From NCBI GenBank assembly GCA_965202985.1, contig CBDBCF010000001.1, forward strand, positions 2,368,001 through 2,432,000: a DNA stretch of 64,000 bases, in the 5' to 3' direction. The stretch comes from Longimicrobiales bacterium. GTDB lineage: Bacteria; Gemmatimonadota; Gemmatimonadetes; Longimicrobiales; Gaopeijiaceae. Position 1 is the first letter of the stretch. Every line of letters begins with the position of its first letter. This document shows positions 2,998-64,000 of this stretch, in pieces. Below the pieces are notes generated by a model. The model was not told the origin of the DNA and did not search any database. It was given only the letters and a program-made list of their open reading frames with translations. Made by a program: the position numbers and the translations under genes.

Positions 2998-4413
2998 TCA
3001 GCCCCTGTCCCCGTCGGGTCGCGGGGCGGCGCGGCCCAGGGCGTTCCATGCGTCGGGTCGGAGACGGCGGTCCAGCCGGATCGCCGCGGCCGAAGACAGC
3101 CCCGGCACCCTCCACGGATGGCGGGCCAAGAAGTCCACCACGCCTTCGCCCCCGATCAAGGAGTCCGTGCCCGGTTCCGCGTCGGCGGCAGCGTCCAGCG
3201 GGTCCGGGTCGGGGCTTCGGTCCTCCAGCGCTTGGCAGAACGACCACTTGAAGTACCGCACTTCGCGCTCCAGAAACTTCAGGAAGTCGGGAAAGTGGGC
3301 GGCGGCGGTCAGCAGGGGCTCCGACTCGCCCGGTCGCAGTCCGGCGGGCGTCCGATGTCCCAGCCGGGGCAGGTCGGGCGTGTGCAGGCGGTCCCGGGTG
3401 CGTCCGACGTACAGGTCGGCCTTGGAAAGCACGACCGCGACCGGCCGGTCGTACTTGGTGGGCGCCCGCTTGAAGGCGTCGTCCACCTGATTCCGCGTGG
3501 GAGGCCGGTTCCCTTTCAAGTCCAGCCGTCCCTTGCGCCGGAGCCGTTCGGCGAACCGCGCCACGACCGCGTACTTGAGCAGCATCTTGTGAGCGTTCAC
3601 CATGCGCTCGGCGGCCGCCTCCATCTCCCTGCGCTCGCCGGCGGGGGGCACGCGGCGGCGGGGGTCGTCTCCCGGGTTCCAGCCCGACCAGACCACGGGC
3701 AGCGCCATGAGGAACGCGATTCCGTCCAGCCGCTGGAGGACGGGCCAGAGGAAGGCCCCCATCAGCTCCGGCAGCTCCCGCTCGTAGTCCCCCAGCACCT
3801 GATAGTCCTCGCCGGCCATGTCCACCAGGACGTGATGGTCGCGCCTGCCGGGCAGGTAGTAGATGTTGACGTCCCCCCGCTCGGTCTTGTTGTAGTGCAG
3901 GTCGGCGCCCGGCCTGTCCGCGGCCCGCTCCCGGAGGCGGTCGGCGAGCGTCGTCTTGCCGTGGCGCGGCAGCCCCGCGATGCCGAAGAGCTTGCCCCGC
4001 CGCCGCCGACGGTGCTCCGCGAGCGCCTCGACGGCGGTGCCTGCAGCCGACCTGTCGGCGGACTGCACCCTCTTGCTGTGCAGGCCCGGCGAGGGTCGCG
4101 GGGGCGGGATCGCCGAGTCGTCCGGTTCTTGGCGTGTGCGCTCCTCGGGCGGGTCGTTGAGCGCGTCGCTGGGTGGCGGAGCGGAACGGCTCGGGGCTTC
4201 GGGCGTCGAGTCCGCCGGGGGGCGGGCGTCGTCCGATGGCGAATCCGCCGATGCAGGGGTGTCGTCCGGGGCCGAGGCGTCGTCCGCGGCCGAGGCGTCG
4301 TCCGGGGCCGAAGCGTCGTCCGCGGCCGAACCGCGGCCCGCCCTTTCCCGCATGACCTCCTTCCGCAGCCGCTTCAGGGTCTGCGCGACTTGTCTGCTGC
4401 GCTTCTCGCTCAT
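2998..4413 (-). CDS. TRAFAC-class P-loop GTPase (double-GTPase/DO-GTPase-like) with low-complexity N-terminus
   Basis: G1 GLPRHGKTT, G3 DMAGE, G4 SKAD in ORF 2998..6501. ATG at 4413 overlaps the upstream TGA (4410-4412); an alternative ATG lies at 4449. Confidence 0.8.
   Translation of the reverse strand: MSEKRSRQVAQTLKRLRKEVMRERAGRGSAADDASAPDDASAADDASAPDDTPASADSPSDDARPPADSTPEAPSRSAPPPSDALNDPPEERTRQEPDDSAIPPPRPSPGLHSKRVQSADRSAAGTAVEALAEHRRRRRGKLFGIAGLPRHGKTTLADRLRERAADRPGADLHYNKTERGDVNIYYLPGRRDHHVLVDMAGEDYQVLGDYERELPELMGAFLWPVLQRLDGIAFLMALPVVWSGWNPGDDPRRRVPPAGERREMEAAAERMVNAHKMLLKYAVVARFAERLRRKGRLDLKGNRPPTRNQVDDAFKRAPTKYDRPVAVVLSKADLYVGRTRDRLHTPDLPRLGHRTPAGLRPGESEPLLTAAAHFPDFLKFLEREVRYFKWSFCQALEDRSPDPDPLDAAADAEPGTDSLIGGEGVVDFLARHPWRVPGLSSAAAIRLDRRLRPDAWNALGRAAPRPDGDRG
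4257..4330. repeat. 18-bp tandem repeat x4 encoding SAADDA/SAPDDA in the GTPase N-terminus
   Basis: gtcgtccggggccgaggc / gtcgtccgcggccgaggc / gtcgtccggggccgaagc / gtcgtccgcggccgaa. Confidence 0.85.
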
Positions 4414-6494
4414 TCGGAGGACCTTTCCCTGCTCCCACTCCAACGCCATCTCGTCTTCCGGGCGGGGCGCCGCGCCGACGAGGAACGGCGGGCCGGGGCG
4501 GAACGCCGATGAAGGAGGGCCGACCGGAGCGCCAGGAACACCGAGATCGGCGGTCCCGGCTCGTGTTCCATGAGGCGCCGGGCCAGGGAGGCGGCTCCAG
4601 GGCGGCCCGCCGCCGCCAAGGAGGCCAGGGCCGTCTTGCCCCAGATGCGCTGCTCGACCCACGCCAAGCGCTGGAGAACGCCGGCGTCCAAGGAGCGCGA
4701 CTGATCCGAGCCCAACGCCGCTTCGCCCGGAGCCGTGGTCGCTTCGCTTGCGCCGACCTCGGCCCGGCGCGCCGCCGCAAGCCCGAGCCAGACTCTTGCC
4801 AACAAGGTCTGCCAAGCCGGATGCGCCCTCCCGGGCCAAGCCAGGAAGACGCGAATCAGGTCCCGAGCCAAGCGGGAGCTCATCGGGTCCCGGAGGCCGG
4901 CGGCGTCCACCATCTTTGGCACGTCGGCGACCCGACCAAGCGGCTCGAGGAGCCCGACAACGATGCCGGCCAGCTTCGCGACCGTCTCGTCCCCGTCTTG
5001 CTCCCGCGTCCGCCCGACCGCGGCCCCCAGCTCCCCGGCGTCGACGCCCGCGTGGGCCAGCGCCCGGAGCCCCTCGACCAGGAGCACCAACCCCTCGGCC
5101 CGACGGCGCGTCCCCGTGCCCGCCAAGACGGCCAGCCGCGCCGCCCAGGAGCCGGGAACCTTGCCGCCGAACCCGCGAACCAGTCCGTCGAAGAAGCGCC
5201 GGTTGGTTGTCAGCAAGGGCTCGCGGAGAACGGCGTCGATCCACTCGGGCGGTCGGCCCGGAGGCCGCGCAGCCAAGTCGGCCGCGGCCAGCACGCCGAG
5301 CGCTCGCCACCGCTCCGCGCCCCGGGACTCGAGACGCGCGCGGTCCAGGAGGTCGACGGCCCCAAGCCGCGCCGGCGCCCAATGCACGACGTAGGGCTCG
5401 CTTGCCGCCCGAAAGAGAGAAAGGCCCCGCGCGTCGATCCGAGCGCTTGCCCTGCCGTACTCGGCCGAGTCGCCCAGGACCAGAGCGGCCCACGTCTCCA
5501 AGGGACCGCGTTTCGTGGACGCCGCTCCCGTTCCCCCAGTCCCCGTTCCCGTTCCCCGCCCCGGAACGGCGGCCCCGGGCACCAGGCACGGAGTCGGATG
5601 GCGTCCCCGCAGATCGAGCGTCGAGTAGAAGACGCGGACCCTGTCGACCAACGGCAGGGACAGCCACGCCAACCGCATTACGACGCAGGCCTCCCGGCGC
5701 GTCCCAACCACTTGGACGGCGCCGTCGCGGGAGACCTTCGCAGCCGGGGCGTCGGGAGTCGGGGCGCGGTCCGGAGCGCGGGCCGGGTCCGAGGTCGCGT
5801 CCACCTTCCGATACACGTCCACCAGCGCTTCGCGGACGGCCCGAACTCCACCAGCGGCGACGGCGGCTCGAGCCAGGCGGTCCACCTCGCGCAACCGGGC
5901 GCGCCTGATCCGGTCTCGATTCGGCCTGTACTCGGGCGTGGCCAACGGTTCCAGGCCCGCCGGCGCGGAGCGGCGAAGCTGCGCGAACCAAGCCGCCTCC
6001 GCGGGCGCTCCGGACGCCATCCCCGCCGCCGACAAGTCCAGGTGAAGCCCTTGGGGGAAACCGTCGATCTCGCGAAAGAGGGATTGGTCGAAGAGGAGCG
6101 TGTGGGTCGCGACGCGCGGACGGCGGGCGCGGGCTTCCTCGCGAGCGGGCCGAACGACGCCGGAGAGGCAGAAGCCAAGGCGACCGTCCAGCGGCAGGAA
6201 CGCCTCCGGCAGCCCCAGCGTTCCCATGGCGACAGCGTCCGTCTTCGGGTCGTCCGCCCTCGGGCCGCGGCCGCCCTCCCGAACAAGCACTGGCGGCTCG
6301 GCAGACTCCGCAAGCTCGGCGCCCCACGGCACCCGTTCTTCCAGCCTCCCCGCCCGAACCCGGTCCAGACCCCCGGTCCAGCCACAGGTCTCCCACGCCG
6401 GGTTGTAGGCGGAGGCGTTGGATGCGAACAGATGGCGATCCAGGCGGCGGTTGCGTCCCGCTGGATCGTGCTCGTCCGGTCCTGGCGCGGTCAC
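4410..6494 (-). CDS. GTPase-associated protein 1 (GAP1-N/GAP1-M-like) hypothetical protein
   Basis: GTG at 6494 overlaps TGA 6491-6493. N-terminal ...ARRPRVATHTLLF and middle LAWLSLPLVDRVRVFYST resemble GAP1 N and M signatures. Directly upstream of the GTPase. Family recognised by eye only. Confidence 0.55.
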   Translation of the reverse strand: MTAPGPDEHDPAGRNRRLDRHLFASNASAYNPAWETCGWTGGLDRVRAGRLEERVPWGAELAESAEPPVLVREGGRGPRADDPKTDAVAMGTLGLPEAFLPLDGRLGFCLSGVVRPAREEARARRPRVATHTLLFDQSLFREIDGFPQGLHLDLSAAGMASGAPAEAAWFAQLRRSAPAGLEPLATPEYRPNRDRIRRARLREVDRLARAAVAAGGVRAVREALVDVYRKVDATSDPARAPDRAPTPDAPAAKVSRDGAVQVVGTRREACVVMRLAWLSLPLVDRVRVFYSTLDLRGRHPTPCLVPGAAVPGRGTGTGTGGTGAASTKRGPLETWAALVLGDSAEYGRASARIDARGLSLFRAASEPYVVHWAPARLGAVDLLDRARLESRGAERWRALGVLAAADLAARPPGRPPEWIDAVLREPLLTTNRRFFDGLVRGFGGKVPGSWAARLAVLAGTGTRRRAEGLVLLVEGLRALAHAGVDAGELGAAVGRTREQDGDETVAKLAGIVVGLLEPLGRVADVPKMVDAAGLRDPMSSRLARDLIRVFLAWPGRAHPAWQTLLARVWLGLAAARRAEVGASEATTAPGEAALGSDQSRSLDAGVLQRLAWVEQRIWGKTALASLAAAGRPGAASLARRLMEHEPGPPISVFLALRSALLHRRSAPARRSSSARRPARKTRWRWSGSRERSSE

Positions 6495-7123
6495 GGGACA
6501 TACTCCGGGGGGATTTCGACGCCTGAACTGTCCGGCCCGGTGTCCAAGGCGCTGTCCGTTTCGAGGGCTTGCGAACTGTCGGCGGCGAGGCCCGGAGAGT
6601 CGGGCAGGCCCAGCGAATCGGGCAGGCTCAGCGAGTCGGGCAGGACGGCCCGCACGGTGTCCACGAGCGGCGCGACGGAGTCTCCGAAGACGCTTGGAGC
6701 GCCGGCCCCGCCGCCGGCCGCCCCGGCGGGCCACGGTCCCCACTGTCTTCCCGCCCACCACCCGGCGCCCACGAGCGCGACGGCGGTCAGGGCACCCACG
6801 ACGGCGGCAGCCCATGTCGGCCACGGCCTTGACCCGGCCTTGCCTCGGGTAGCGGCGTCGCCCTTGGCGCCGGCGTTGCCCTTGGCGCCCGCGTCGCCTT
6901 TGGATGCCGAAACCGGACCGTCGATTCCGAGGGGGGCCGCGCTCGCCATCTCCTCCCGCACCACCCGCCGCACGATCTCCTCCCAGTCGGCGGGCGCGGG
7001 CGCCGCGCTTCGAACCGCTTCCGCGACGGCCTCTCCGGCGTCTTCGCGGATCGCCTTCAGAGTCTGGCGGTAGAGCGCCGTCATCTCCTGTTCGCGCTCG
7101 TAGGTCTCCTGTTCGCGCTTCAT
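6491..7123 (-). CDS. Single-pass membrane hypothetical protein with repeat-rich linkers
   Basis: ATG 7123 overlaps TGA 7120-7122. Helical N-terminus MKREQETYEREQEM, KGDAG/KGNAG repeats, TM WAAAVVGALTAVALVGAGWWAG, LPDS repeats. Confidence 0.7.
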   Translation of the reverse strand: MKREQETYEREQEMTALYRQTLKAIREDAGEAVAEAVRSAAPAPADWEEIVRRVVREEMASAAPLGIDGPVSASKGDAGAKGNAGAKGDAATRGKAGSRPWPTWAAAVVGALTAVALVGAGWWAGRQWGPWPAGAAGGGAGAPSVFGDSVAPLVDTVRAVLPDSLSLPDSLGLPDSPGLAADSSQALETDSALDTGPDSSGVEIPPEYVP

Positions 7124-10403: not shown

Positions 10404-11792
10404 ATGCGAGTGCATTCGGTTGGGCGATGCCCCGGGCGACAAAGCCGGTGCCCCGCGCGACGGTGCCGGTGCCCCGGGCGACGGTGCCGGCGAATCGCGC
10501 ACTTCGCATCAGCGGTTCGGCTCGGGATCGTGGCCTCGTCTGCGGTCGCCGCCTCGCCGGCGCTTTCGGCGTTGGAGCCGGCTTTCTCGGCGCTGGAAGC
10601 AGCGGCGGCTCAGGCTCGCCAGTCGCCGGCGATCTCGGGGCGGGTGGTGGACCTGGCCACGGGAGACGGCGTGGAGGGCGCCGTCGTTTCGCTTGTGCGC
10701 TTGGCGGGAGTTCGGCGGGCTGCGAGCGAAACCGTCTCCGGCCCCGCAGGGCAGTTTCGGTTCGCCGAGGCGCGGGTGGGCGAGTACGAAGTGGAGGTCG
10801 AGCACGTCGCCTACGGTGCGTTCGTGGACACGCTGGTGCTTGCGGAGGGCGAACGGATCGCGTTGCGGGTCGTGCTGTCCCAGACGGCCATTGCCTTGGA
10901 GCCCCTGGTGGTGGAAGCGGTCGGCGCCGAGACCAGACGGACGCGCGCACAGGGGACCGCGCCTCGCCGGCTGACGGCGGAGCAGCTGGCCCCGGTGGCC
11001 AGAACCGGCGTCCACTTGGTGGATGCGCTGGCTCGCCTGATGCCGGGGATGCGCGCCCGGAGCGGACGAAGCCAGCCGGGGGAGCTCGTGTGCTTGGAGT
11101 TCCGCAGCCCCGCTAGTCTGTCCGACTTCGGTTGCCTTGCGCCCGTGGTTGTGGTCGACAACGTGCGGCAAGCCAACGGCCTGATCACGCTGAACACCTT
11201 GCCGATCGACAACGTGCGCAGCGTGGAGGCCGTCCCCCCGGGAGAGGCCGGGGTCCGCTACGGCGCCGACTCGCGCTACGGCGTCGTCGTGATCGAGACG
11301 TGGTCGAGAGCGCCAACGGCCGAAGAGCCCGGGCGGCTTCCGGGCGCGCTGTACGACTGGTCCCTGGAGTCGGAGCCGTATCCGTGGACGCGGGTTCTGG
11401 GCGTGGCGGCGGCAAGCAATGCGGCGGGTCTCCTGGTCGGGTACGCAGCCTCCAAGTCCTGCTTGGACTTCGACGACCTGACCCGCCACTTCTCCGGGGC
11501 GCGGTGCGGCTTCTGGGGCAACTCGGGTGCCCGGCTGATGCTGTACGTGGTCCCGCAGGCCGGCGTGGGCTGGGCCGCGAGCCGGGCGGGCGCGACCGAC
11601 CTGTCCAGGGGCAGCCCGTGGAAGAACGCCGTTGCCGCCGCCGTCATGGCGTTGCCCGGGATGGTGCTTGCCCTGACCAACGACGAGGACGGATTCGCGG
11701 GATCGAAGGCGCTGGGGCTGACGATGGCCACCGTGGGAGCGCCCGCGGCCGCCGCCCTCGCGGACCGGCTGTTTCGTCGCACCGTTCGCTAG
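10404..11792 (+). CDS. Carboxypeptidase-regulatory-like domain plus TonB-plug-like domain with hydrophobic C-terminus
   Basis: ISGRVVDLATGDGVEGAVVSL...GEYEVEVEHVAY; plug-like PVVVVDNV...VRSVEAV...GVRYG...GVVVIET. Start uncertain. Confidence 0.65.
   Translation: MRVHSVGRCPGRQSRCPARRCRCPGRRCRRIAHFASAVRLGIVASSAVAASPALSALEPAFSALEAAAAQARQSPAISGRVVDLATGDGVEGAVVSLVRLAGVRRAASETVSGPAGQFRFAEARVGEYEVEVEHVAYGAFVDTLVLAEGERIALRVVLSQTAIALEPLVVEAVGAETRRTRAQGTAPRRLTAEQLAPVARTGVHLVDALARLMPGMRARSGRSQPGELVCLEFRSPASLSDFGCLAPVVVVDNVRQANGLITLNTLPIDNVRSVEAVPPGEAGVRYGADSRYGVVVIETWSRAPTAEEPGRLPGALYDWSLESEPYPWTRVLGVAAASNAAGLLVGYAASKSCLDFDDLTRHFSGARCGFWGNSGARLMLYVVPQAGVGWAASRAGATDLSRGSPWKNAVAAAVMALPGMVLALTNDEDGFAGSKALGLTMATVGAPAAAALADRLFRRTVR
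10428..10491. repeat. 21-bp tandem repeat x3
   Basis: tgccccgggcgacaaagccgg / tgccccgcgcgacggtgccgg / tgccccgggcgacggtgccgg. Confidence 0.8.
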
Positions 11793-22740: not shown

Positions 22741-24749
22741 TACATCAACAGGGCTCGCCACGGCGTGGTCCCGGCCGCGCCATCCCGTGCCGCAGGAGGA
22801 CGCCGATCTCAATTTCCCGTCGGGACGCTGGACCCGCGTTGCGCCCGTCCGCCAGAACGCCGTGCCGCGCCGCCAGGACGCAGCGCCACGCTGCCTGTAC
22901 CACACGCCGCGCCGCTTGTACCGCACGCCGCGCCGCCCGTGCCCCATGTCGTGTCGCCTGGACCGTGCGTCGCGTCGCCTGTGCAACCGCAACCGCCTTG
23001 GCCGTCGCAGCCGTTCCGGCGCCCGCCGCCGCAATTTCGGCCGTCGCGACGCCGACCCAGGCCGTCGCCGCACAGTCCGACTCCGCCGGCATTCCCGTTC
23101 GCGACCAGGGCGTGATCGACGCCTGCCAGCGCTGTCACGCGGTGGACGACGCCGGACGGATGAGCCGCGTCTCCTTCATGCGCAAGACGCCCGAGGGGTG
23201 GCAGCAGTCGATCCGCCGCATGGTGACCCTAAACGACATGGAGCTGGACCCGGAGGTCGCCCGACGCATCGTCCGCTACCTGTCCGACCATCACGGGCTG
23301 GCCCCCGAGGAGCTCGAACCCGGCCGGTTCGAGGTCGAACGTCGCCTGATCGAGTGGACCTACGAGGCGGACAAGGACGTCGCGTACACGTGCAGCCGCT
23401 GCCACTCCATGGGCCGAGTCGTCACGCAGCGCCGCACCAAGGAGGAGTGGGAGCTCCTCATGGCCATGCACCGGGGCTACTACCCGTTGTCGGACACGCA
23501 AGGCTTTCGGCGGATCGGCCCGCCGCCCCCGGACGCCACCGACACGCGCCATCCCATGGACAAGGCGGTGGCCCACTTCGCCCAGGCGTTCCCGCTGGAG
23601 ACGCCCGAATGGACGGCTTGGTCGGCCACGATGCGCCCGCCTCGACTGGAGGGAACGTGGGCGTTCCGAGGGCACGACCCCGGCCGCGGACCGATCTACG
23701 GGACCGTCTCGATCTCGGCGGGCGACGACTCGTCCAGCTTCTTCACCGAATCGTCCTATGTGAACGCCCGCACCGGCGTCGCATCGAGGGGTGCCGGGCG
23801 TGCGGTTGTCTACACCGGCTACCAGTGGCGCGGTAGGTCGTTCACCGGCCGGCCCCAGGGCGCGGGCAACGCCAACGCCGCCCCCGACGCGGCGCTGCGC
23901 GAAGTCATGATGGTGGACCGCAGCCGGGCCGAGATCACCGGCCGCTGGTTCCGGGGCGCGTACGACGAGTTCGGGCCGGACGTGACCTTGGTGCGCGCCG
24001 ACGGACCTGTCCTGCTGGGCCTCTACCCGGTGTCGGCCCGCACGGGGGCTCGCGACGTGAGCGTGCGCATCTACGGCGCCGACTTGGCGGACATGGGCGC
24101 GCCGGAGACGGGGCCCAGCGCGGTGGACATGGGACCGGGAGTGGATGTGCTCGCGGTTGAAGCGGGCGAAGGCGACTTCGTGCTGGCCAGGGTTGCCGTG
24201 GACGAGGACGCCGCCCCCGGCGCGCGCGACGTGTACGTGAACGGACGAGCCGTGCCCGGCGCCTTCACCGTGTACCGCCAAGTGGACCGGATCGCGGTCG
24301 AGCCCCGTGCCGGGATGGCGCGGCTGGGAGGCGGCGCCCACTTCCCCAAGGGATACGCGCAGTTCCAGGCCACGGCGTTCGCCAACGGCCCCGACGGCAA
24401 GCCCGAGACCGCGGACGACTTGGACTTGGGCCAGGCCGACGTGACTTGGTCGCTGGAAGAGTACGCCGCCGTCTTTGACGACGACGACCTGGAGTACGTC
24501 GGAACGCTCGACCAGGACGGCCTCTTCGAGCCGGCGCTGGACGGCCCCAACCCGCGCCGCTCGGGCGAACGCAACAACGTGGGCGACGTGTGGGTGGTCG
24601 CGACCTACCAAGGCCCGGGCGACAACGAAGTGCGAGGCCGCGCGCACTTGGTGGTCACCGTTCCCTTGTACATGCGCTGGGAGCCGTGGCGCGTCCAACA
24701 GACCTGGCCGCCCCCGCCTCCGCCCCCGCCCCGGAGCACGGGACGATGA
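22737..24749 (+). CDS. qhpA: Quinohemoprotein amine dehydrogenase alpha subunit (di-heme c)
   Basis: CQRCH and CSRCH heme motifs, RKTPEGW, YTGYQWRG, ARLGG, LVVTVP. True start may be GTG 22965. Confidence 0.9.
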   Translation: MIHQQGSPRRGPGRAIPCRRRTPISISRRDAGPALRPSARTPCRAARTQRHAACTTRRAACTARRAARAPCRVAWTVRRVACATATALAVAAVPAPAAAISAVATPTQAVAAQSDSAGIPVRDQGVIDACQRCHAVDDAGRMSRVSFMRKTPEGWQQSIRRMVTLNDMELDPEVARRIVRYLSDHHGLAPEELEPGRFEVERRLIEWTYEADKDVAYTCSRCHSMGRVVTQRRTKEEWELLMAMHRGYYPLSDTQGFRRIGPPPPDATDTRHPMDKAVAHFAQAFPLETPEWTAWSATMRPPRLEGTWAFRGHDPGRGPIYGTVSISAGDDSSSFFTESSYVNARTGVASRGAGRAVVYTGYQWRGRSFTGRPQGAGNANAAPDAALREVMMVDRSRAEITGRWFRGAYDEFGPDVTLVRADGPVLLGLYPVSARTGARDVSVRIYGADLADMGAPETGPSAVDMGPGVDVLAVEAGEGDFVLARVAVDEDAAPGARDVYVNGRAVPGAFTVYRQVDRIAVEPRAGMARLGGGAHFPKGYAQFQATAFANGPDGKPETADDLDLGQADVTWSLEEYAAVFDDDDLEYVGTLDQDGLFEPALDGPNPRRSGERNNVGDVWVVATYQGPGDNEVRGRAHLVVTVPLYMRWEPWRVQQTWPPPPPPPPRSTGR

Positions 24750-35782: not shown

Positions 35783-35856
<74 letters not shown>

Positions 35857-52348: not shown

Positions 52349-53525
52349 ATGACCCACATGGACAGTCGCCCGCAGTTCGCCCTCTTATGTCGCCCGGCGC
52401 ACCGACTTCGAGTTCGGCGACCACATCGCGAAGCGCTTCCGTCGCCGCTGGGGCACGGACCCCTACCGCCAGATCGTCGGAGGCGACGGCGTCGACGCGT
52501 TGCCAAGACACGCCCGTGCGCCAAGTGCCATGCTGCCGATAGACTGGGACGCGAGCGGTGCCACGGCGGTCGTCGTGCTCATGGATCGGTTCTTTGCGGC
52601 CCAAGGAGCTTGGGTCGATTACGTCCGTGAGCTTGCGGAGGAGGCAGATGCTCGCGGATTCGCCTGTCGCGTCTTCCCCGTCGCGATGGAGTCGGAAGTT
52701 CTGAATGCCCTGGATGGTCAGCTCCCCATTCAGGCCCTTGATTGGACGGAATTCGCTACCAGCGACTCGGACCGCGAGCGGCGCCTGATTTGCGAATTGC
52801 TCCACCAGTTCTGCAGAATGCTCCGGTACCGACTACGGCCGAAGCCGTACCAGCCAGCGACCTTGGACGACTACATGAGGGAGAAAGTCCGCATTTTCAT
52901 CAGCTACCGTCGCGACGATCAACAGGGCCGGGAAACCGCTCGGCGGATCCATGAATGGGTCCACAGCAACAGCGACCTGGACACCTTCTTCGACGTCGTC
53001 AGCGTACCGCCGGGCGTGCCCTTCTCGGAAGTCATCTACGATGCAATTCCGGACTCCGTCATGGTTGTCTGCTACTCGGACTCGTATTCTTCAAGCCAGT
53101 GGTGCCGTCGCGAGGTCGTCGAAGCAAAGCGACATGGAATCCCCATGATCGTCCTCGACTGCCTCCAAGACATGGACCCACGCATGTTTCCGTATCTCGG
53201 GAACGTGCCGGTAATCCGCGTCGACCCCGAACAGGGGTGCCCCTGGGCCGAACGAGTCGTCACCGTGCTGCTTGAAGAAGTCTTCCGCGATCTACTTTGG
53301 AAGTGCAGAGTGGCTCCTTTCGAGCACGAGGATGCTGGAGTAGCCTTTACGTCTCGGAAGCCCGAACTGTGTTTGCTTGCAGCCTTCTCCAGATCGGGCC
53401 GGACCCGGCCTTCCGTCGTTTATCCCGGACCTTCGATTGGTGCAGAGGAGGAAAGGTTGTTTGCCGACATCGACCCGAGCGTGCAGCTTCACACGCTTGA
53501 CGATTGGACACGGAGGCACGCATGA
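52349..53525 (+). CDS. TIR domain protein (frameshifted near the 5' end, at about 52385)
   Basis: IFISYRRDD, TFFD, SSQWCRRE (catalytic Glu retained). The RBS-linked ATG 52349 joins ORF 52500..53525 only if one T at 52385 is skipped. Confidence 0.8.
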
Positions 53526-54346
53526 ACACGGCTCTGCATCCACCGCGAGCCATCGCCGTCTCGGTCTCCGACAGCCCGGACACCGACGGACTGGGAGTCA
53601 GCGTGGACCATGTGTGGGACACGTTCGTGGAGCTTGTCATAGAACTTCTGGCCTCGGGAGTGGACTTGGCCTACGGCGGCGACCTTCGCGAGCGGGGTTT
53701 CACCGAAGTGCTCTTCGAGCTGGCAGGACGGTACCGGCGACCCGGCCAAACGGCGATTCGCGTGACCAACTACTTCGCGTGGCCTGTGCACATTCGGATG
53801 TCCACGAGCGACTTGGACGAAGTTGCGGCCAGCGTGGACCACGTCGCGCATCTGGCCTTTGTCGGACTCAACGGCACACGGATGTCTGCCGACGTGCGCC
53901 GAAAGCTCCCGTCATGCGAGCCAAGCGATAGGGACTGGCGGTCAGGTCTGACAAGCATGCGGACGACGATGCGAACCGAGACAAGCGGTCGAATAGCCAT
54001 CGGTGGCCAAGTCGAGAACTACAAGGGCAAGATGCCGGGCATTGCCGAGGAGGCATTGCTGTCGTTGAAGGCCAGGCAGCCCTTGTTCCTGGTGGGAGGG
54101 TTCGGCGGTTGTACTCGCGACATAGCGGAGACGCTCGGTTTGGTCGATCCGTGGAACGACCCTCGGGATTGGCCGGAGCGCCAGCGCTTCGAGGGCTACA
54201 CGGCCGACGACTTGATGAATGGCCTCACGGACGACGAAAATCGAACACTGGCTCGGACGCCCTTCATCGGTCAGGCCCGGCAGCTCGTCATGCTAGGCTT
54301 GCACCGGCTGTTCCACCACGACAGCCGTGTTCCTCTGTCTTCGTGA
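53522..54346 (+). CDS. Stand-alone SLOG (SMF/DprA-LOG superfamily) domain protein
   Basis: [26 protein letters not shown]...[19 protein letters not shown] overlap with TIR. Confidence 0.8.
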
Positions 54347-56889
54347 TTGAGCCACGCAGCGTCCCAGCTACGCTCCGAGCCATCCGCGAGGTCATGGACC
54401 TGACGCAGGAGGAGCTTGCCGAGCGACTCGACGTGTCCTTCGCCAGCGTCAACCGCTGGGAGGGCGGCAAGGTCAAGCCGCAGCGAGCGTCCAGAGAGGC
54501 CATCGCGGCACTGGCCGAGGAGGCCGGCGTTGACTGGATGGCGGCGAATTCCGAGAACGCCCCAGAGGGGTCTGCCGAACCACACAGCCCTGCGCGACGG
54601 CGGAAGACGAGGAAGAGCGGCCGCGCGGCCGAGACCTCGGGGGCGTCCGACACCGCGGCCATGGAGAAGATGCTGTGGAGCGCCGCCTGTTCGATCCGCG
54701 GCGAACGGGACGCAGCGAAGTTCAAGGACTATCTGTTGCCGCTCCTGTTCTTGAAGCGCCTGTCCGACGTATTCGACGACGAGATCGCTCGACTCGAAGC
54801 CGAGTACGGGAACGCGGACGTTGCCAGGGAGATCGCCGAGGAGGATCACGACCTTCTTCGCTTCTACTTGCCACCGGAGGCCCGCTGGGCGGTGATCAGC
54901 GGCCGGAAACCTTGCGAATGGCCACGCGGCGGCGCCCCGAGGGACGTCGGGGAGCATCTGACCAAGGCCGTGCGGGCGGTCGTGCGCGAGAACCCTTCCC
55001 TGTCCGGCGTCATCGATGTCGTGGACTTTGCGGGGGAGCGCAACGGCGAGCGCGATGTCAACCCGGCCAAGCTCGCACAGGTCATCGAGACTTTTTCGGA
55101 CCCCGACTACCGCCTTGGCCTTGCAGACGTCCAGCCCGACTTTTTGGGCCGCGCCTACGAGTTCCTGCTGCGCAAGTTCGCGGAGGGATCGGGCAGAAGC
55201 GGAGGCGAATTCTTCACGCCGACGGAGGTCGCCTTCCTGATGGCGCACATCATGCGCCCAAAGCCTGGCGACAAGTGCCACGACTACGCCTGCGGATCGG
55301 CCGGCCTGCTGCTCAAGCTCCAGCTGGTCGCCCAAGAACTTGATCCCACGACCCGCGTGCCCCTCAAGCTGGCCGGTCAAGAACTCCAGGCCGAGAGCTA
55401 CGCCACTGCCAAGATGAACGCCATCATCCACGACATGGACGTGGAGGTCGCGCGCGGCGACACGATGATCAACCCGAAGTTCAAGACCGCCTCCGGCAAG
55501 ATCGACACTCACGACATCGTGGTTGCCAACCCAATGTGGAACCAGCCGTTCAATCCGGATACCTTTGCCAACGACCCCTTCGACCGTTTCCGTCCCGCCG
55601 GAGGGCCGACCAGCGGAAAGGGCGACTGGGCATGGCTCCAGCACACGCTGGCGTGCTTGAACGAGCGGGGTCGCGCCGCCGTGGTGCTGGACACCGGCGC
55701 CGTGACGCGCGGCTCCGGCACAAAGCACGAAGACAAGGAGCGGAACATCCGCAAGTGGTTCGTGGACAACGACCTGATCGAGGGCGTGATTCTCCTCCCG
55801 GACAATCTGTTCTACAACACGACGGCCGCAGGTGTGATCGTGGTGCTGTCGAAGGACAAGCCGCCGGAACGGAGGGGGAAGGTGGTGTTGCTGGATGCTA
55901 GCGACTGGGCGCGCAGCGGGAGAGCCAAGAACCATTTGCCCCAGGCGGCTATTCCGGCTTTGGCCGCCATGTTTCTAGATGCAGATACGACGATCCATCA
56001 GGTTGCAGTTGTGTCGACAAGTGAGATCGCAGCAGTAGACTATAGCCTTATTCCTAGCCGATGGACGACGCAGACACGTACAAGAACAACAAACGGCGAT
56101 CAATTGGATGATCTTGTAGCCTCCCTGAGTCGATTGTCTTTGGAGCATTCTAGATTGGAGCAAAAAATGTTGTCGATGCTTGCATCTCTGTCCATGGACC
56201 ATGTAGCGGCTCCACTCTCAGACTGGCGGCATACGGAGATAGGCGACGTAACGATTCCAGTCTCAGTTTGGAATCCTCGACGTGAGCCTCGACCATCAAT
56301 TCGGTACGTCGACGTTTCCGGTGTATCGCGCGATACACTCACAATCACGAAGGAAGTCGAGTACCGACGCCCCGAGACCATACCCAGCCGGGCGCGCAAA
56401 ATCGTGCATGCCGGAGACACGATCTTTGCCACTATACGTCCGGCATTGCGGCGGATAGCACAAATCCCTGATCGACTTCATGGAGAAATAGTATCGACGG
56501 CCTTCTGTGTATTGAGGGCCGATCCCAACGTAATTGACTCCGATTACCTGTTTCATGTAATGCAACTCGACACAGTCGTCAGCGACATTTCGTCGTTGGA
56601 AACAGGTGCAAGCTATCCCGCTGTTCGTGACACTGATGTCCTAGCTCAGCGAATACCAGTGCCACCACTAGCGGAACAGCGGGTAATCGTATCTGTCCTG
56701 AGCGGAGTCAGAGAAAGAGTTCGTCTGTATCGCACCCAAGAAGGTGTCACGGGACAACTGTACAGAGCATTGTTGCATAGGATTGCTACTGGCCGAACTC
56801 GAGTGATCGCCGCGCGGTCTCAGGATCAGGGATGCCGTTGGATCGGAAAGAGTCGCCCCCGGACAGCAGGAGTATCCCATGACCACTGA
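54343..56889 (+). CDS. hsdM: XRE-HTH + Type I HsdM methyltransferase + single-TRD half-HsdS fusion
   Basis: [49 protein letters not shown]-terminal PSRAR...GDTIF...VSTAF...[15 protein letters not shown] overlap with SLOG. Confidence 0.88.
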
Positions 56890-58282
56890 CCAACTCGCCC
56901 TTCTTGTCGAATTCGGCGAATCCGAGACGTTGGAACTGAAGACGACGACAGGCGGCCGCCGCGAGGCTGCGCGGACCATATGCGCTATGCTCAACCAGCG
57001 CGGCGGCTACGTGATGTTCGGGGTCAAGCCGGATGGTGCGGTCGTGGGACAGCAGGTCAGCGACCGGACATTGGAGGAACTTGGCGCGGAGATTGGCCGG
57101 ATTCAGCCGGCGGCCTACCCAGAGGTGATTCGCGTGAATGTGGCGAATGGGCGCGACGTGGTCGTCGTGCGGGTGAAGGCGGGCGAGGGCAAGCCGTACA
57201 CCTACCGAAGCCAGGGCTACCGGCGCGTGGGCAACGTTACGCTGCCGATGTCGGCGGACGAGCATGGTCGGGCGGTCTTGGAGCGGTACCACAAGAGCGA
57301 CCGCTGGGAGAACCAGGAAGCTGGAGGATGGTCGATCGACGACCTCGACGGAGACGAGGTTCGGAATACGGTCGCAGAGGCCGTGCGGCGGGAACGGTTG
57401 GACGAACCGGAGCGTAGAGGTGTCGAGGACCTGTTGCTCGGACTGGGCCTGATACAGGGTGACGTGGTGTATCGGGCCGCCGCCGTGCTGTTCGGCAAGC
57501 GCGAGCGCTTGGAGGTGGACTTTCCTCAGTGCTTACTTCGCGTGGCTCGGTTTCGCGGGGTGGATCGGTCGAAGTTTCTCGACAACCGCCAGTTCGCTGG
57601 CAACGCTTTCGAACTGTTGCGAGCGGGCGAACGGTTCCTACGCGAGTGGGTGCCCATCGCGGGACGGTTCGACCCGAACCGGTTCGACCGAATCGACGAG
57701 CCCTTGTACCCGGCCTTGGCGACCAGGGAGGCGCTGGCGAACGCTCTCTGTCACCGTGACTACGCCGTCTTCGGCGGTTCCATCGGACTGGCTATGTACG
57801 ACGACCGGTTGGAGATCACGTCGCCCGGCCCGTTGCACTTTGGATTGACGCCAGAGGATCTTTTTGAGCCGCACCGGTCCCGGCCGTGGAATCCCTGGAT
57901 CGCCCGAACGTTCTATCGCAGAGGCATCATCGAGACGTGGGGCACGGGGACAATCAGGATGGCCGAGACGGCAGTCGCTGCCGGGTTGCCCCGTCCCGAG
58001 ATCGAGGAGCAGGGCGACTCCGTGATCGTCCGGTTCCAACACGGACAAGTCGGCCCCGAGGGTGTCGCGGAAGGGGCGGTTCCGGCGAGGACGGAGGTGC
58101 TGGTGCTTCTGGATGGTGCTGTTGGGGGCATGACCCGCAGGGAGATCCTTTCGGGGATGCGGGGTAGCGTGAGCGAGGCGCAGCTGCGAAGAATGTTGGA
58201 GGAACTCCGAGACGAAGGGCTAGTGCAGTTGCGTGGTACGGGCTGGTCTGCTCGGTGGATGCGGACTAAGGCGTCAAGGTGA
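56879..58282 (+). CDS. Schlafen/AlbA_2 domain + HATPase_c_4 + wHTH protein (RecG-C-like)
   Basis: [18 protein letters not shown]...[32 protein letters not shown]-terminal wHTH; AGGAG RBS. Confidence 0.85.
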
Positions 58283-58302
58283 TTGTTGGTCGGTTGCCAC
58301 AG

Positions 58303-58500
58303 TGGCGGGAATTGACGCCAAGATGGCGTCGCGGAACACGCCAAGATGGCGGGAATTGACGCCAAGATGGCGTCAAGAGGTGCCAATGACGCCAAGATGG
58401 CGTCGCGGAACACGCTAAGATGGCGTTGAGGGGGCGCTAAGATGACGCTCCAGGGGCGCCAAGATGGCGTTGGGGAGCGTCAAGATGACGCCAAGATGAC
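58303..58500. repeat. Intergenic array of about 9 palindromic repeats, consensus GACGCCA-AGA-TGGCGTC
   Basis: AAGATG core at 58320, 58343, 58364, 58394, 58417, 58439, 58461, 58482, 58493. Confidence 0.9.
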
Positions 58501-58506
58501 CTTCCC

Positions 58507-61485
58507 GTGACTGCCCGCCGGATCGACGAGGGGGCCGTCGCGCAGTTTCCGATGGTCCGGCACGCGCAGGAGGTCGGCTGGACGCCGCTGGAGCCCAAGG
58601 TGGCCACCGCCAAGCGGGGAGGTCGGGACGGCGCCTTCTTCCGCGACGAGCTTGAAGTCGCCATCCGTCGCTTCAACCCTTGGCTGACCCCTGACGCCGT
58701 CCGGTCCGTCGTGGAGAGGATCGAGGCCACGCCGCCGACGGTCGAGGGGAACCGCCAGATGCTGGGCTGGATGCGCGGGGAAAGGCAATGGTACGACGAG
58801 ACGGAGAGGCGGCAGCGGTTCGTGCGGCTGATCGACTTCGACGAACCGAACGCCAACGTCCTTCACGTCACGTGGGAGTGGTCGATCAAGCCGCCTGCCC
58901 GGCGTCGGGGAGCGCGGGCGGACCTCATGTTCGTCGTCAACGGGTTGCCCGTGGCGATCGTGGAGAACAAGAACCCGAAGCAGGCCGACGCCATCGAGCG
59001 GGGCCTGAATCAGCTGAAGCGGTACGAAGCGAGCACGCCGGAGCTGGTCGGCTCGGCCCAGCTCTTCAACGTCACGCACATGCTGGACTACTGGTACGGG
59101 GTCACGTGGAACCTGTCGCGCCGCTTCATGGCGCGCTGGAAGGAATCGTCCGGCGGCAAGGGCAAGCGCGGCTTCGACGACAGCTACCGCTTCGCCGTTC
59201 AGTCCTTCTTCGAGCCGACGGACTTCCTGCGGACGCTCCGCGACTGGATTCTGTTCTACGTCGAGGACGGCGAGACGCGGAAAACGGTGTTGCGACAGCA
59301 CCAGCGCCGGGCCGCGGCGCGCGTGGTCGAACGATGCGCCGAGCCGAGGAAGCGACGGGGTCTGGTCTGGCACACCCAAGGTTCGGGCAAGACCTTCACG
59401 CTCCTCACGGCGGCCCGGCTGCTGCTCCAGGACCGTGCGCGCTTCCAATCGCCCACCGTCATTGTCGTGGTGGACCGGATCGACCTTGAGGGGCAGCTCC
59501 GAGAGTGGGTCGAGCGTCTGCTGGGCGAGATGCAGCAGCAGGACATCGCGGTGCACCAAGCCGGCTCCAAGGCCGAGCTGGCGGAGCTGCTCCGGACCGA
59601 CAGGCGCGGGCTGATCCTGTCGATGATCCACAAGTTCGAGGGGCTCGACAGGGACGCGAACACGCGCGACAGCGTCTTCGTCTTCATCGACGAGGCGCAC
59701 CGATCCGTCGCCCGCGACCTGGGCACCTACCTCATGGGCGCGGTGCCGAACGCCACCATCGTCGGCTTCACCGGCACGCCGATCGCCAAGACCGAGCACG
59801 GCCAGGGGACGTTCAAGATATTCGGGGTCGACGACGAGAAGGGCTATCTGCACAAGTACACGATCGCCGAGTCGATCGAGGACGAGACCACGCTCCCGAT
59901 CCGCCACGTCATGGCGCCCAGCGAGACGACCGTGCCGGCCCAGCAGCTGGACGACGAGTTCTTCGCCCTAGCCGCCGCAGAGGGCGTCACCGACGTAGAC
60001 GAGCTCAACAAGGTCCTGGACCACGCAGTCGGGCTGCGCGCCTTCCTGACGGCCGACGACCGCGTGGACAAGGTTGCGGCTTACGTCGCCCGCCACTTCC
60101 GCAAGAACGTGCAGCCTCTGGGGTACAAGGCATTCCTGGTCGGCGTGAACCGGGAGGCTTGCGCCAAGTACAAGCTGGCGCTCGACAAGCTGCTTCCGCC
60201 GGAGTGGACTGTGCCCGTCTACACCGAGAACCCCGACGACGTCGTGAAGCGGCCGATCGTCGCGGAGCTTCAGCTGTCGCGGGACCAAGAGGATGAAGCG
60301 CGGCTGATGTTCAAGAAGACGGGCGAGAACCCCAGAATCCTCGTCGTGACCGACAAGCTGCTCACGGGGTTCGACGCGCCGCTGCTGTACTGCATGTACC
60401 TGGACAAGCCCATGCGCGACCATGTGCTTCTGCAAGCGATTGCCCGCGTGAACCGGCCTCACGTGGACCCCGACACCGGCGCCCGCAAGCGGATCGGGCT
60501 CGTGGTGGACTTCGTGGGCGTGCTTCAGGCGCTGGAGAAGGCGCTGCGCTTCGAATCGGCCGACGTGAGCGGGGTCGTCGAGGGCATCGACGTGCTTCTT
60601 GGGGAGTTCCGGGACAAGCTGGCCCAAGCAGAGGCGAAGTACCTCTCCCCGGCGGCTGAGGGAGCCGCCGACGCTTGGCTGGAACAGCGCGTCTACGAGC
60701 AGCTTCGCGATCCGGCCGCGCGCAACGAGTTCTTCGATTCCTATAAGGAGATCGAGGCGCTGATGGAGATACTGTCGCCCTCCGACGAGCTGCGCGACCA
60801 CCTGGATTCCTACAAATTGCTGGCCGGCCTCTACGCGGCCACGCAGGTTGCGTACGCCCGCAAGGTGGACTACGTGGCCGACCTGGCCGCCAAGACGCGC
60901 GTCATGGTTCAGCGGAACGCGGTCACGGAAGGGCTGGGCCACGCCCCGCGAGCGGTCACCTTCGACCTGAAGACGGTGGAGGCGCTACGGGGCGGGCCGG
61001 AGCGCGACGAGGCCAAGGTGTTCAACTTGCTGCGCGGGATGCGGAGGGCGATCGACGACAACGCCGAGCTGGCCGCCGTCCTGTTGCCGTTGCAGGAGCG
61101 CGCCGAGCGCGTGCAGCACGACCTGGAGGCGCGCAGGATATCGTCGGTGGAAGCGTTCGAATTGCTCGCCGGGCTGGCCAAGGAAAAGGACGACGCGCTT
61201 GTCGCGGCAGAGGAGAGCGGGCTGTCCGCGAGAGCCTTCGGAGTCTACTGGGAGCTGCGGAACGAGTCGTCCCTGACGAAGGTGGGAATGTCGGCCATGG
61301 AGCTGGCCCGCTTGGCCGACGACCTGCTGGTCCGCTTTCCCAGTGCGAAGCGCAGCGTGCAGGAGAACCGCTTGTTGAGGGGACACTTGTACAGTCCGCT
61401 GCTCAAGCTGACCGTCGGCGATCGCAAGCGACTCGTGGACCGCATCATGGACCTCGTGCTGGGCGTGTCCGGTGACGACGACTGA
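58507..61485 (+). CDS. hsdR: Type I restriction endonuclease subunit R
   Basis: [57 protein letters not shown]. Confidence 0.95.
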
Positions 61486-61798
61486 CGCCCTCCGCAGCCG
61501 CGTACATTCGTGGGCAACCCGCCTCGACGTGCAACCCAAGTCGATTCGGATTCGACGGATGACGCGGAAGTGGGGCTCCTGCTCCACGGCGGGCAACGTG
61601 ACGCTGGCCGCCGACTTGGCCGACCAGCCGCCGGGGTTCCAGGACTTCGTGGTCGCTCACGAACTGCTCCACCTCCGGGTGCCCAACCACAGCAAGCTGT
61701 TCAAGGCGCTGATGACGGCCTACGTGCCCGACTGGCGAGAGCACGACCTCCGGCGGCGGGGGCCGACTTGCGCTCTCGGACGCGACGCATCACGTTGA
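61472..61798 (+). CDS. Minimal YgjP/M48-like metal-dependent hydrolase
   Basis: [21 protein letters not shown]; typical position after hsdR. Confidence 0.85.
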
Positions 61799-62997: not shown

Positions 62998-63069
62998 GCC
63001 TAAAGGTACCCAATTCCACGCTGCCCGGCAACCACCCTATTTGAGCCGCACCGGTCCCGCCTGTGGAAT

Positions 63070-63739
63070 CCGTGCTGTCCGAGCAGGTCGCGCGTTTCGC
63101 ACTCGGAGAAGTCGCCCAAGCGCAGGGACTCGGCCTTGATGCTGAAGGCGCTGCCGCCCGCAACCATCGTCTTCGCCGAACTGGAGTAGATGCGATAGTC
63201 GCGCACGTCCCGGACGCCGCACAGGACAACGCTTTGTGGGAACCGCTCGGGTCGGTGGGGATAGTCTGCCCGAAGCTGACGCAGCACCGACAGAAGGGTG
63301 TCGCCGACCAGCGAGTCGATTTCGTCGATCAGCAGCACCAGGGGCTTCTCGTTCGTCTTGGCCCAGCGGGACAGGGCCTCGCCAAAGCTGCCAGGGCCGT
63401 ACTCGGAAAAGATGCTGGACCAGTTGGCCGCCATGAAGCGATCTCCTGTCGCACTGGCCTGACGGGCAAGCTGACCCGAGTCGCACGCTCCACGTCTTCG
63501 CGCATCGCTTGTCCGGCTTCGACGTTGAAGTGGACGCAGCGGTAGTTGCCCTCGGCGTTGAGCAGGTCCTGGAGCGCCAGCATGGCGGACGTCTTGCCGG
63601 TCTGCCGGGAGGCGTGGAGCACGAAGTAGCGCTGCCGGTCGATCAGCAGCCGGAGTTCAGCGAGATCGAGCCTGGCCAGCGGCGGAATGCGGTAGTGGTC
63701 CTTCGCCGTCACGGGGCCGGACGTGTTGAAGAAGCGCAT
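63070..63739 (-). pseudogene. AAA-like ATPase pseudogene (frameshift near 63472, truncated near 63070)
   Basis: MRFFNTSGPV...HASRQTGKTS in one frame; LLIDEIDSL...CGVRDVRDY...AESLRLGDF in another; C-terminal half missing. Confidence 0.8.
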
Positions 63740-63756
63740 TCTCTCGATCGGCAAGA

Positions 63757-64000
63757 TCACATCCCCCAGACTGCGATCTCGGCGCCGCTCTCGGCGGTGC
63801 GGACGTCGCGGAACACCTTTTCGTCCCAACTGCGTTCTTTGTTCCGATCGAAGACGACCAAGTGTCCGGCCTCGGTGCCGCAGCGGTCCATGTACGCCGC
63901 CGTCTGCTCCACGCCATCGACCACGGTGCGGTCCAGGCCCCGGCGCTCGCGGCGAACCTTGCACTCGACCACGTACTTGCGCGTCCGCTTGCCGTCGCCC
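63757..64000 (-). CDS. C-terminus of an AAA ATPase / PD-(D/E)XK nuclease-like protein (partial)
   Basis: YVVECK...GVEQTAAYMDRCG...GHLVVFDR...VWGM. Confidence 0.75.
   Translation of the reverse strand, partial: GDGKRTRKYVVECKVRRERRGLDRTVVDGVEQTAAYMDRCGTEAGHLVVFDRNKERSWDEKVFRDVRTAESGAEIAVWGM

Follow-up and report, generated by a model that had tools for sequence, protein, structure and literature searches.

Phased repeats at the 3′ end of a Schlafen-GHKL gene as probable binding sites for the winged helix of its own product

In the 64,000-nt stretch of Longimicrobiales DNA analysed here (the window), a dense series of short repeats lies between a Schlafen-type gene and the type I restriction gene hsdR, raising the question of which gene these repeats serve and by what means. 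The surrounding operon is ordered: TIR; SLOG; XRE-HsdM-half-S; the Schlafen (AlbA) gene; the array; hsdR; and a short YgjP-like gene. The upstream neighbour of the Schlafen gene (54109..56889, + strand, start codon approximate) matches Pfam HTH_3, HsdM_N, N6_Mtase and Methylase_S, and carries an N-terminal XRE HTH and a C-terminal S half with a single TRD, which implies a symmetric target. The downstream neighbour is hsdR (58507..61485, + strand; Pfam HSDR_N, PADLOC REase_I). A first-pass annotation described the array as about nine helically phased palindromes. It proposed either operator-like sites for a dimeric binder (the XRE domain of HsdM, the winged helix, or wHTH, of the AlbA protein, or the half-S enzyme) or an RNA hairpin series gating hsdR, for example delaying restriction until methylation is established.

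The main array spans 58314..58498 on the + strand. Nine AAGATG cores start at 58320, 58343, 58364, 58394, 58417, 58439, 58461, 58482 and 58493, giving the spacings of 23, 21, 30, 23, 22, 22, 21 and 11 bp that had been claimed. The sequence GACGCCAAGATGGCGTC recurs at 58314 and 58388, with a further copy at 58358; the 9-bp stem at 58356-58376 and the palindromic variant with both arms changed at 58477 are likewise present. An underlying 11-bp period is borne out by GRYGYY half-units in 11-bp steps across 58422-58466. The description as an array of palindromes holds for the nine cores but only in part for their symmetry: clear palindromes occur in six of the nine units, and the perfect stems around AGA measure, core by core, 7, 5, 9, 7, 1, 1, 5, 6 and 2 bp. 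Between the end of the last core (58498) and the hsdR GTG lie 8 nt, not the 6 bp first given. The most fitting description is of an 11-bp unit, GRCGYCAAGAT, repeated head to tail, with one AAGATG core mostly every two turns and GC-rich half-units in between; near self-complementarity of the GC half gives rise to the dyads. A first, degenerate unit, GGCGTCAAGGT (58270..58280, + strand), lies over the stop codon of the Schlafen gene, and the main block starts 32 nt after that stop.

Chance is ruled out as the origin of this clustering (Poisson p ~5e-19 per 200 bp, ~2e-14 genome-wide). In the 3.86-Mb genome containing the window (G000), this is the sole cluster of at least four AAGATG within 200 bp, and paired matrix matches occur nowhere but in this array. 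The genome-wide search for the unit that the first-pass annotation had called for thus returns a single cluster, and a REP/BIME or generic dispersed repeat, which needs many genome copies, is rejected. A period scan of the whole genome was too strict for the number of arrays in G000 to be inferred, returning four matches and missing the window array itself. Contigs from four sequencing runs of four studies cover the array, some with 21-24 nt gaps inside, so it is no assembly artefact. The runs that share most carry sponge or marine metagenome labels, and no RNA data are among the listed runs that share the locus. Contigs from two runs (X6 and X9, over window 58032-58430) match as far as the GHKL domain extends and again in the array, with a gap between; these strains have diverged in linker and wHTH but share a similar array.

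The gene preceding the array (56879..58282, + strand) encodes a 467-aa protein with a Schlafen domain (AlbA_2, PF04326, E 1e-17), a GHKL ATPase domain (HATPase_c_4, PF13749, E 7e-22) and a C-terminal winged helix. The AlphaFold model has a pLDDT of 90, replacing an earlier model built from five sequences (pLDDT 57), and its best fold match is DIP2311/3LMM (E 4e-24). Alignment of homologues places the Schlafen catalytic motif at E14-x4-E19-x-K21 (56918..56941, + strand), in agreement with the Ex4(E/D)xK definition given in PMC13056530. Among 97 aligned homologues, E14 and E19 are invariant and K21 is present in at least 90%; E284, N288 and G355 of the PF13749 region are also invariant. The winged-helix domain (58085..58264, + strand) has no Pfam HTH family match above cut-off, and the modelled secondary structure contains three helices (residues 403-412, 420-426 and 433-445) followed by a beta hairpin of wing strands (449-452 and 459-462), the arrangement expected of a C-terminal HTH. 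The gene is therefore a member of the Schlatpase-HTH, or pSlfn HisKinase-HTH, class. As described in the accessible portions of the sources, that class (preprint 10.64898/2026.05.29.728809; PMC13056530; DIP2311, PDB 3LMM; TrlG, PMC7554251) shares with the window gene an SLFN domain with Ex4ExK, a PF13749 ATPase, a C-terminal HTH and a context of defence islands and type I RM. HisKinase-HTH fusions make up 19.2% of prokaryotic Schlafens (PMC13056530), and the homologue TrlG is conditionally growth-restricting (PMC7554251). In the same accessible text, tRNA cleavage and ATP-driven oligomerisation are demonstrated for other Schlafen fusions only (PMC13056530; preprint 10.64898/2026.05.29.728809). 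Twelve AlbA_2 matches are found in G000 alone.

If the array served hsdR, it should follow hsdR among relatives. Of three same-genus genomes, two (G001 and G003) keep the gene and the array with a changed array length, and in both, as in G000, the array fills the gap before hsdR; the two-unit pattern has a match in G003 and none in G001. The wider comparison drew on 179 loci (171 further and 8 initial, not dereplicated, window included), of which 134 were kept because the query matched to its C-terminal end with at least 150 nt downstream. A 10/11/21/22-bp signal at -40 to +330 of the stop codon exceeds all 100 shuffles in 97 of these 134 loci, as against 2 of 115 controls, and no comparable period peak lies upstream of or inside the gene in the 134-locus set. 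The array units themselves differ widely between loci.

The neighbouring genes are far less constant. Next genes were counted where 1.5 kb or more of downstream sequence was available (109 loci, 82 of which have an array): hsdR comes next in 28 and is not next in 54, and hsdM lies upstream, within the sequence examined, in 21 and not in 61. A scan of downstream ORFs (109 of 143 candidate pieces, from 70 of 75 loci) identified the next gene as HsdR in 25 of 70 array loci and HsdM in 3, with a convergent gene on the other strand in 12. Conversely, the first-pass annotation had suggested looking for similar arrays upstream of hsdR homologues; none is found at the three hsdR loci lacking the Schlafen gene that 400 genomes provided. 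The Schlafen-type gene occurs in many phyla and neighbourhoods. Judged from these neighbourhoods, the array belongs to the Schlafen gene and not to hsdR, and sites for the HsdM XRE domain or the half-S enzyme are unlikely given how seldom hsdM lies upstream.

For 77 non-redundant arrays, filtered by score and by a start within 62 nt of the stop, unit spacings are 10 bp in 175 instances, 11 bp in 162, 12 bp in 31 and 21-23 bp in 27; many homologous arrays are pure tandem 10- or 11-mers. Copies per array range from 2 to 30 with a median of 5 and a mode of 4 (28 of 77), a mode biased by the score filter. In 66 of the 77 loci the first site precedes the stop codon or follows it by no more than 25 nt, a figure inflated by the filter on start position; in the other 11 it lies 26-59 nt downstream. 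Once registered, the units share an A (0.83) and then a T (0.74) after a GC-rich half, the window unit being registered one base off. On this comparison, palindromy is a local trait of the window; what the family has in common is a direct repeat, head to tail, with one helical turn per unit. The G001 array contains about 35 consecutive G (L002, ~1180-1220), possibly a sequencing artefact.

Taken together, period and position suggest a DNA element read by the product of the gene that it adjoins. If so, the unit should change with the DNA-reading domain, and several correlations of unit sequence point that way. The unit covaries with residues 419-420, 438-441 and 453-458. Once core identity is controlled for, similarity of the units is correlated with the recognition helix (0.35) and the wing (0.43), and not with the AlbA, middle and GHKL regions (-0.05 to 0.06). 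Partial r is 0.64 at DNA-facing wHTH positions, against 0.04 in the rest of the wHTH and -0.09 in the core. For a strictly defined set of helix and wing positions it is 0.60, a value that none of 300 random wHTH subsets attains. These contact sets were chosen after the per-column results had been seen, and the pairs are not independent. Individual cases point the same way. Where position 439 is D (37 loci), all 11 loci with K437 have C at unit position 3, as against 1 of the 26 with other residues. Loci L081 and L115, whose cores are 98% identical, agree in only 41% of residues 422-462, having swapped wHTH tips, and carry different units. Between the window and G003, 13 of 15 contact positions are kept against 24 of 37 non-contact positions, and the unit is unchanged. 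In 1130 distant pairs, units match in at least 9 of 10 bases in 11 of the 104 pairs with contact identity of at least 60%, and in none of the 1026 below it.

Other comparisons are less discriminating. Nearest-neighbour prediction recovers 7.60 of 10 unit bases from contact positions vs 7.47 from non-contact positions (p 0.54), with 7.05 from the core and 4.8 at random; contact and non-contact positions are not separated here, so unit and wHTH could simply be physically linked. Independent pairs number only three, two in the same direction and none opposite, which is not significant. In a clade with the array in its linker (n=32), helix and other wHTH positions perform alike (r 0.57 vs 0.55; core 0.28). 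Cognate recognition of the unit by the wHTH is likely on this sequence evidence: because the unit changes together with the DNA-reading domain, the array is most likely the Schlafen protein's own binding site.

A second placement of the array is informative about its nature. When 158 distinct loci were sorted by wHTH type (L056 and incomplete loci left out), 83 of 102 short-tail loci had a downstream array, 19 failed the array test and 2 had a weak linker signal. By contrast, all 30 loci with a Fic-like_C-type or related wHTH, a sister clade, have the array within the coding linker, 3 of them weakly downstream as well. The 26 unclassified loci divide into 14 with a downstream array, 5 with a linker array and 7 with neither. 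In 10 of the 30 linker arrays the period is 11 bp, which breaks codon phase, such that successive copies encode different peptides; the array is therefore a DNA element, and this change of peptide from copy to copy points to selection on the DNA. Two further wHTH-ending ORFs in G000 (C1:1744180-1744858 and C1:2050762-2051443) carry repeats of 11/12 bp in the coding linker but lack them downstream.

We accordingly favour, at a probability of roughly 75%, the reading that the array comprises cognate binding sites for the wHTH of the upstream Schlafen-GHKL protein; of the options raised at the outset, operator-like sites for this wHTH are the one that the period at the stop codon and the covariation support. 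Each 10-11 bp unit, with its GC-rich half and AT-containing half, would be read by one wHTH, with the proteins lined up head to tail along a single face of the helix. As a specificity cassette, wHTH tip and array would be swapped together between enzyme cores. Winged-helix regulators are known to use tandem direct-repeat boxes, such as the 11-bp boxes of PhoB, the 10-bp boxes of OmpR and the direct-repeat boxes of LexA. The arrays resemble these in having head-to-tail wHTH sites one helical turn apart with GC-rich and AT-containing halves, and share their 10-11 bp period. They differ in that the known boxes lie at the promoters of a regulon, and the array lies at the 3′ end of, or inside, its own gene, occurs once in the genome, and changes with the wHTH. 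No sigma-70-like site lies within the array. A cognate pair elsewhere (up to 5 kb on each side) occurs in 1 of 89 loci and in none of the other 88, leaving no upstream operator to act on and eliminating bracketing by an upstream copy as a general arrangement. Upstream single cognate sites are at chance level (5 of 84 loci), and upstream pairs at p <=0.05 occur in 11 of 84 loci, mostly low-scoring. Together with the convergent next genes, this suggests that the array would act like a direct-repeat operator of a winged-helix protein but departs from such operators in its position relative to promoters.

How, then, could such sites act from the end of a gene? The most likely function would be a transcription roadblock. 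Protein bound at the array may stop RNA polymerase as it reaches the end of the gene that encodes this protein, or in the linker; polymerase stalled before or at the stop codon would give incomplete messages, and these and their protein would be discarded. The result would be promoter-independent self-limitation of a conditionally toxic putative tRNase that inserts into many operons. In the window, the roadblock would throttle hsdR too, as a side effect. LacI bound at the operator in the end of lacI is reportedly such a roadblock, cutting its own message short with tmRNA tagging, and the likeness is that a protein at the end of its own gene would shorten its own message. That case concerns one auxiliary operator of a metabolic repressor; the array is multi-site and phased, belongs to a nuclease-ATPase and has no nearby partner operator. 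The arrays that start 26-59 nt downstream are too far away to hide the stop codon and count against the proposal; the main block of the window, 32 nt after the stop, falls in this range. The whole statement, cognate sites together with a self-limiting roadblock, is thus held tentatively, at slightly below an even chance.

The main alternative would be a use of the same sites as a safety catch. Here the array would dock the protein head to tail at its own locus and keep the Schlafen domains from forming an active tetramer; loss of the array DNA, through degradation of the chromosome by phage, cleavage or loss of the element, would free the putative tRNase and lead to cell death or arrest. In the available text of the preprint (10.64898/2026.05.29.728809), the same Schlafen-GHKL module in SLFN-pAgo is held locked when packed head to tail in a filament, and its active form is an ATP-driven tetramer. 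That filament autoinhibition and the caging of Retron-Eco1 suggest that a nucleic-acid scaffold could hold the module inactive, the scaffold there being guide RNA or msDNA and here, putatively, the chromosomal locus itself. The intact catalytic motif, both placements of the array and the convergent neighbours would fit, as would a copy-number mode of four, were that mode not biased by the score filter. Four or five sites hold only a few molecules, however, so that self-limitation would be needed as well. HisKinase-type pSlfn have also been tested in E. coli, and in the part of PMC13056530 available, protection is reported only for DUF262 and Ig-like fusions. A Fic-wHTH gene also has an array (see below), so the array is not specific to a Schlafen switch. 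We consider the safety catch unlikely. The same low standing is given to a joint reading, in which wHTH tip and phased array would form an exchangeable lock-and-key cassette that keeps the tRNase inactive on its own locus and frees it once that DNA has been destroyed or lost. What is sensed would then be whether self DNA is intact, not a phage protein; the well-known low-complexity linkers of TPQV/TPEV type that precede the Fic-like_C wHTH would be this DNA element in translated form; and Fic and other effectors would use the cassette too.

The array could instead be a neutral minisatellite, formed by slippage at the end of the gene and inherited with the wHTH merely by adjacency. Copy number does vary from 2 to 30, also between strains, and the nearest-neighbour test did not separate contact from non-contact positions. 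Against this, the period is held to 10-12 bp despite unrelated unit sequences, near-identical units in distant pairs are confined to high contact identity, and 11-bp repeats are retained within coding sequence, making this origin quite improbable. Similarly low is the chance that the repeats are sites at which the gene recombines or is mobilised, or that they are an operator looping to a partner site far away: the spread of the gene through many phyla and neighbourhoods and the swapping of wHTH tips between cores would suit this proposal, but the near absence of cognate pairs within 5 kb, the chance level of upstream sites and the lack of a second cluster in G000 do not.

Least probable of all is an RNA hairpin series, or HsdM/HsdS sites, gating hsdR, which the fold of the window array (z -6.0), double changes in 3 of 7 pairs among 8 units and the location before hsdR in three genomes would favour, but which the variable neighbours contradict, as do the family median z of -0.6 (78 arrays, 18 at or below -2), the restriction of two or more perfect 6-bp stems to 4 of 77 arrays, and a sole Rfam match, CsrB, at 30.7 bits against a gathering score of 71. 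A delay of restriction is disfavoured too, as a repressor roadblock would be empty on entry to a naive cell and would have the opposite effect. Other known array types were also set aside. A CsrB/RsmB sRNA would present GGA loops in repeated hairpins, and the loops of the window array are AGA. A CRISPR or other guide array would have constant repeats parted by unique spacers, beside an effector gene; the intervals here are degenerate copies of the unit, and no such Rfam family matches. Plasmid or phage iterons are rejected in that no Rep family is found among eight flanking proteins scanned. Plasmid searches returned no match at the cut-offs used. In type III toxin-antitoxin RNA arrays the toxin is preceded by structured repeats at least about 35 nt long; the present arrays have a period of 10-11, lie downstream or in the gene and show no conserved fold. 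PrrC-type accessory anticodon nucleases lie between hsdS and hsdR; the window resembles these in placing a putative tRNase at the hsdS-hsdR junction, but the domains are unrelated, and at most homologous loci the gene has no adjacent RM gene.

Several loci suggest that such arrays extend to wHTH genes beyond Schlafen. In L035, a Fic-wHTH gene (3314-4450) is followed by an array of its own, built of a different unit, and stands immediately before a Schlafen gene that has another array. An upstream wHTH-ending gene followed by short repeats of about one turn passes the test in L102 (2-2000; HRDY motif, DIP2311-like), and a similar arrangement in L191 (1-450) fails it. Of three viral relatives, two have short repeats by eye that fail the shuffle test and the third sequence ends early; the Fic-wHTH query was found in 0 of 401 genomes. 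A second short array of the L035 Fic type stands in L047 (~4310-4360) after the Schlafen array and before hsdR, with no Fic gene between, and is possibly the orphan of a lost gene. In G000, about five direct repeats with 11-12 bp spacing (C1:2500724-2500845) lie upstream of a minus-strand gene (C1:2500087-2500765) that we take from its sequence to be LexA-like; they are possibly a direct-repeat SOS box.

The protein class is already known, and the array is absent from the literature found: a search in which most subscription papers fell outside coverage returned no published description of Schlafen-linked arrays. The accessible text of the class publications (preprint 10.64898/2026.05.29.728809; PMC13056530; PMC7554251) does not mention a DNA array, HTH ligand, autoregulation or trigger for this architecture, and that of the preprint and PMC13056530 gives no ligand or trigger for HisKinase-HTH Schlafens. 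Should constructs that end at the stop codon lack the array, the missing cognate sites may be a reason for clones that are toxic or without phenotype. Tandem peptide linkers in Schlafen-wHTH proteins may be reinterpreted as DNA sites, and the natural pairs of helix/wing and unit would amount to a small recognition code. Such arrays are easily misassigned to the downstream gene, here hsdR. Were the lock-and-key reading true, one of the commonest prokaryotic Schlafen architectures would be controlled by a DNA element in its own gene.

Further features of the window were observed. At the head of the operon (52500-54346), the TIR-domain gene is followed by the SLOG (LD_cluster2) gene in a Thoeris-like pairing, with a ThsB match of E 1.6e-12. 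The TRD region of the HsdM fusion is 98% identical to the window in G001 and 72% in G003. The YgjP-like metallopeptidase ORF after hsdR (61472-61798, 108 aa) covers profile positions 114-201 only. Overlapping short minus-strand ORFs at 63000-63964 appear by eye to be pieces of one ATPase-like gene; the one piece scanned has no Pfam match. Tandem repeats of 18 and 21 bp at 4261-4329, 6588-6644, 10428-10490 and 22841-22937 are probably coding, and a tRNA-Ile(GAT) lies at 35783-35856.
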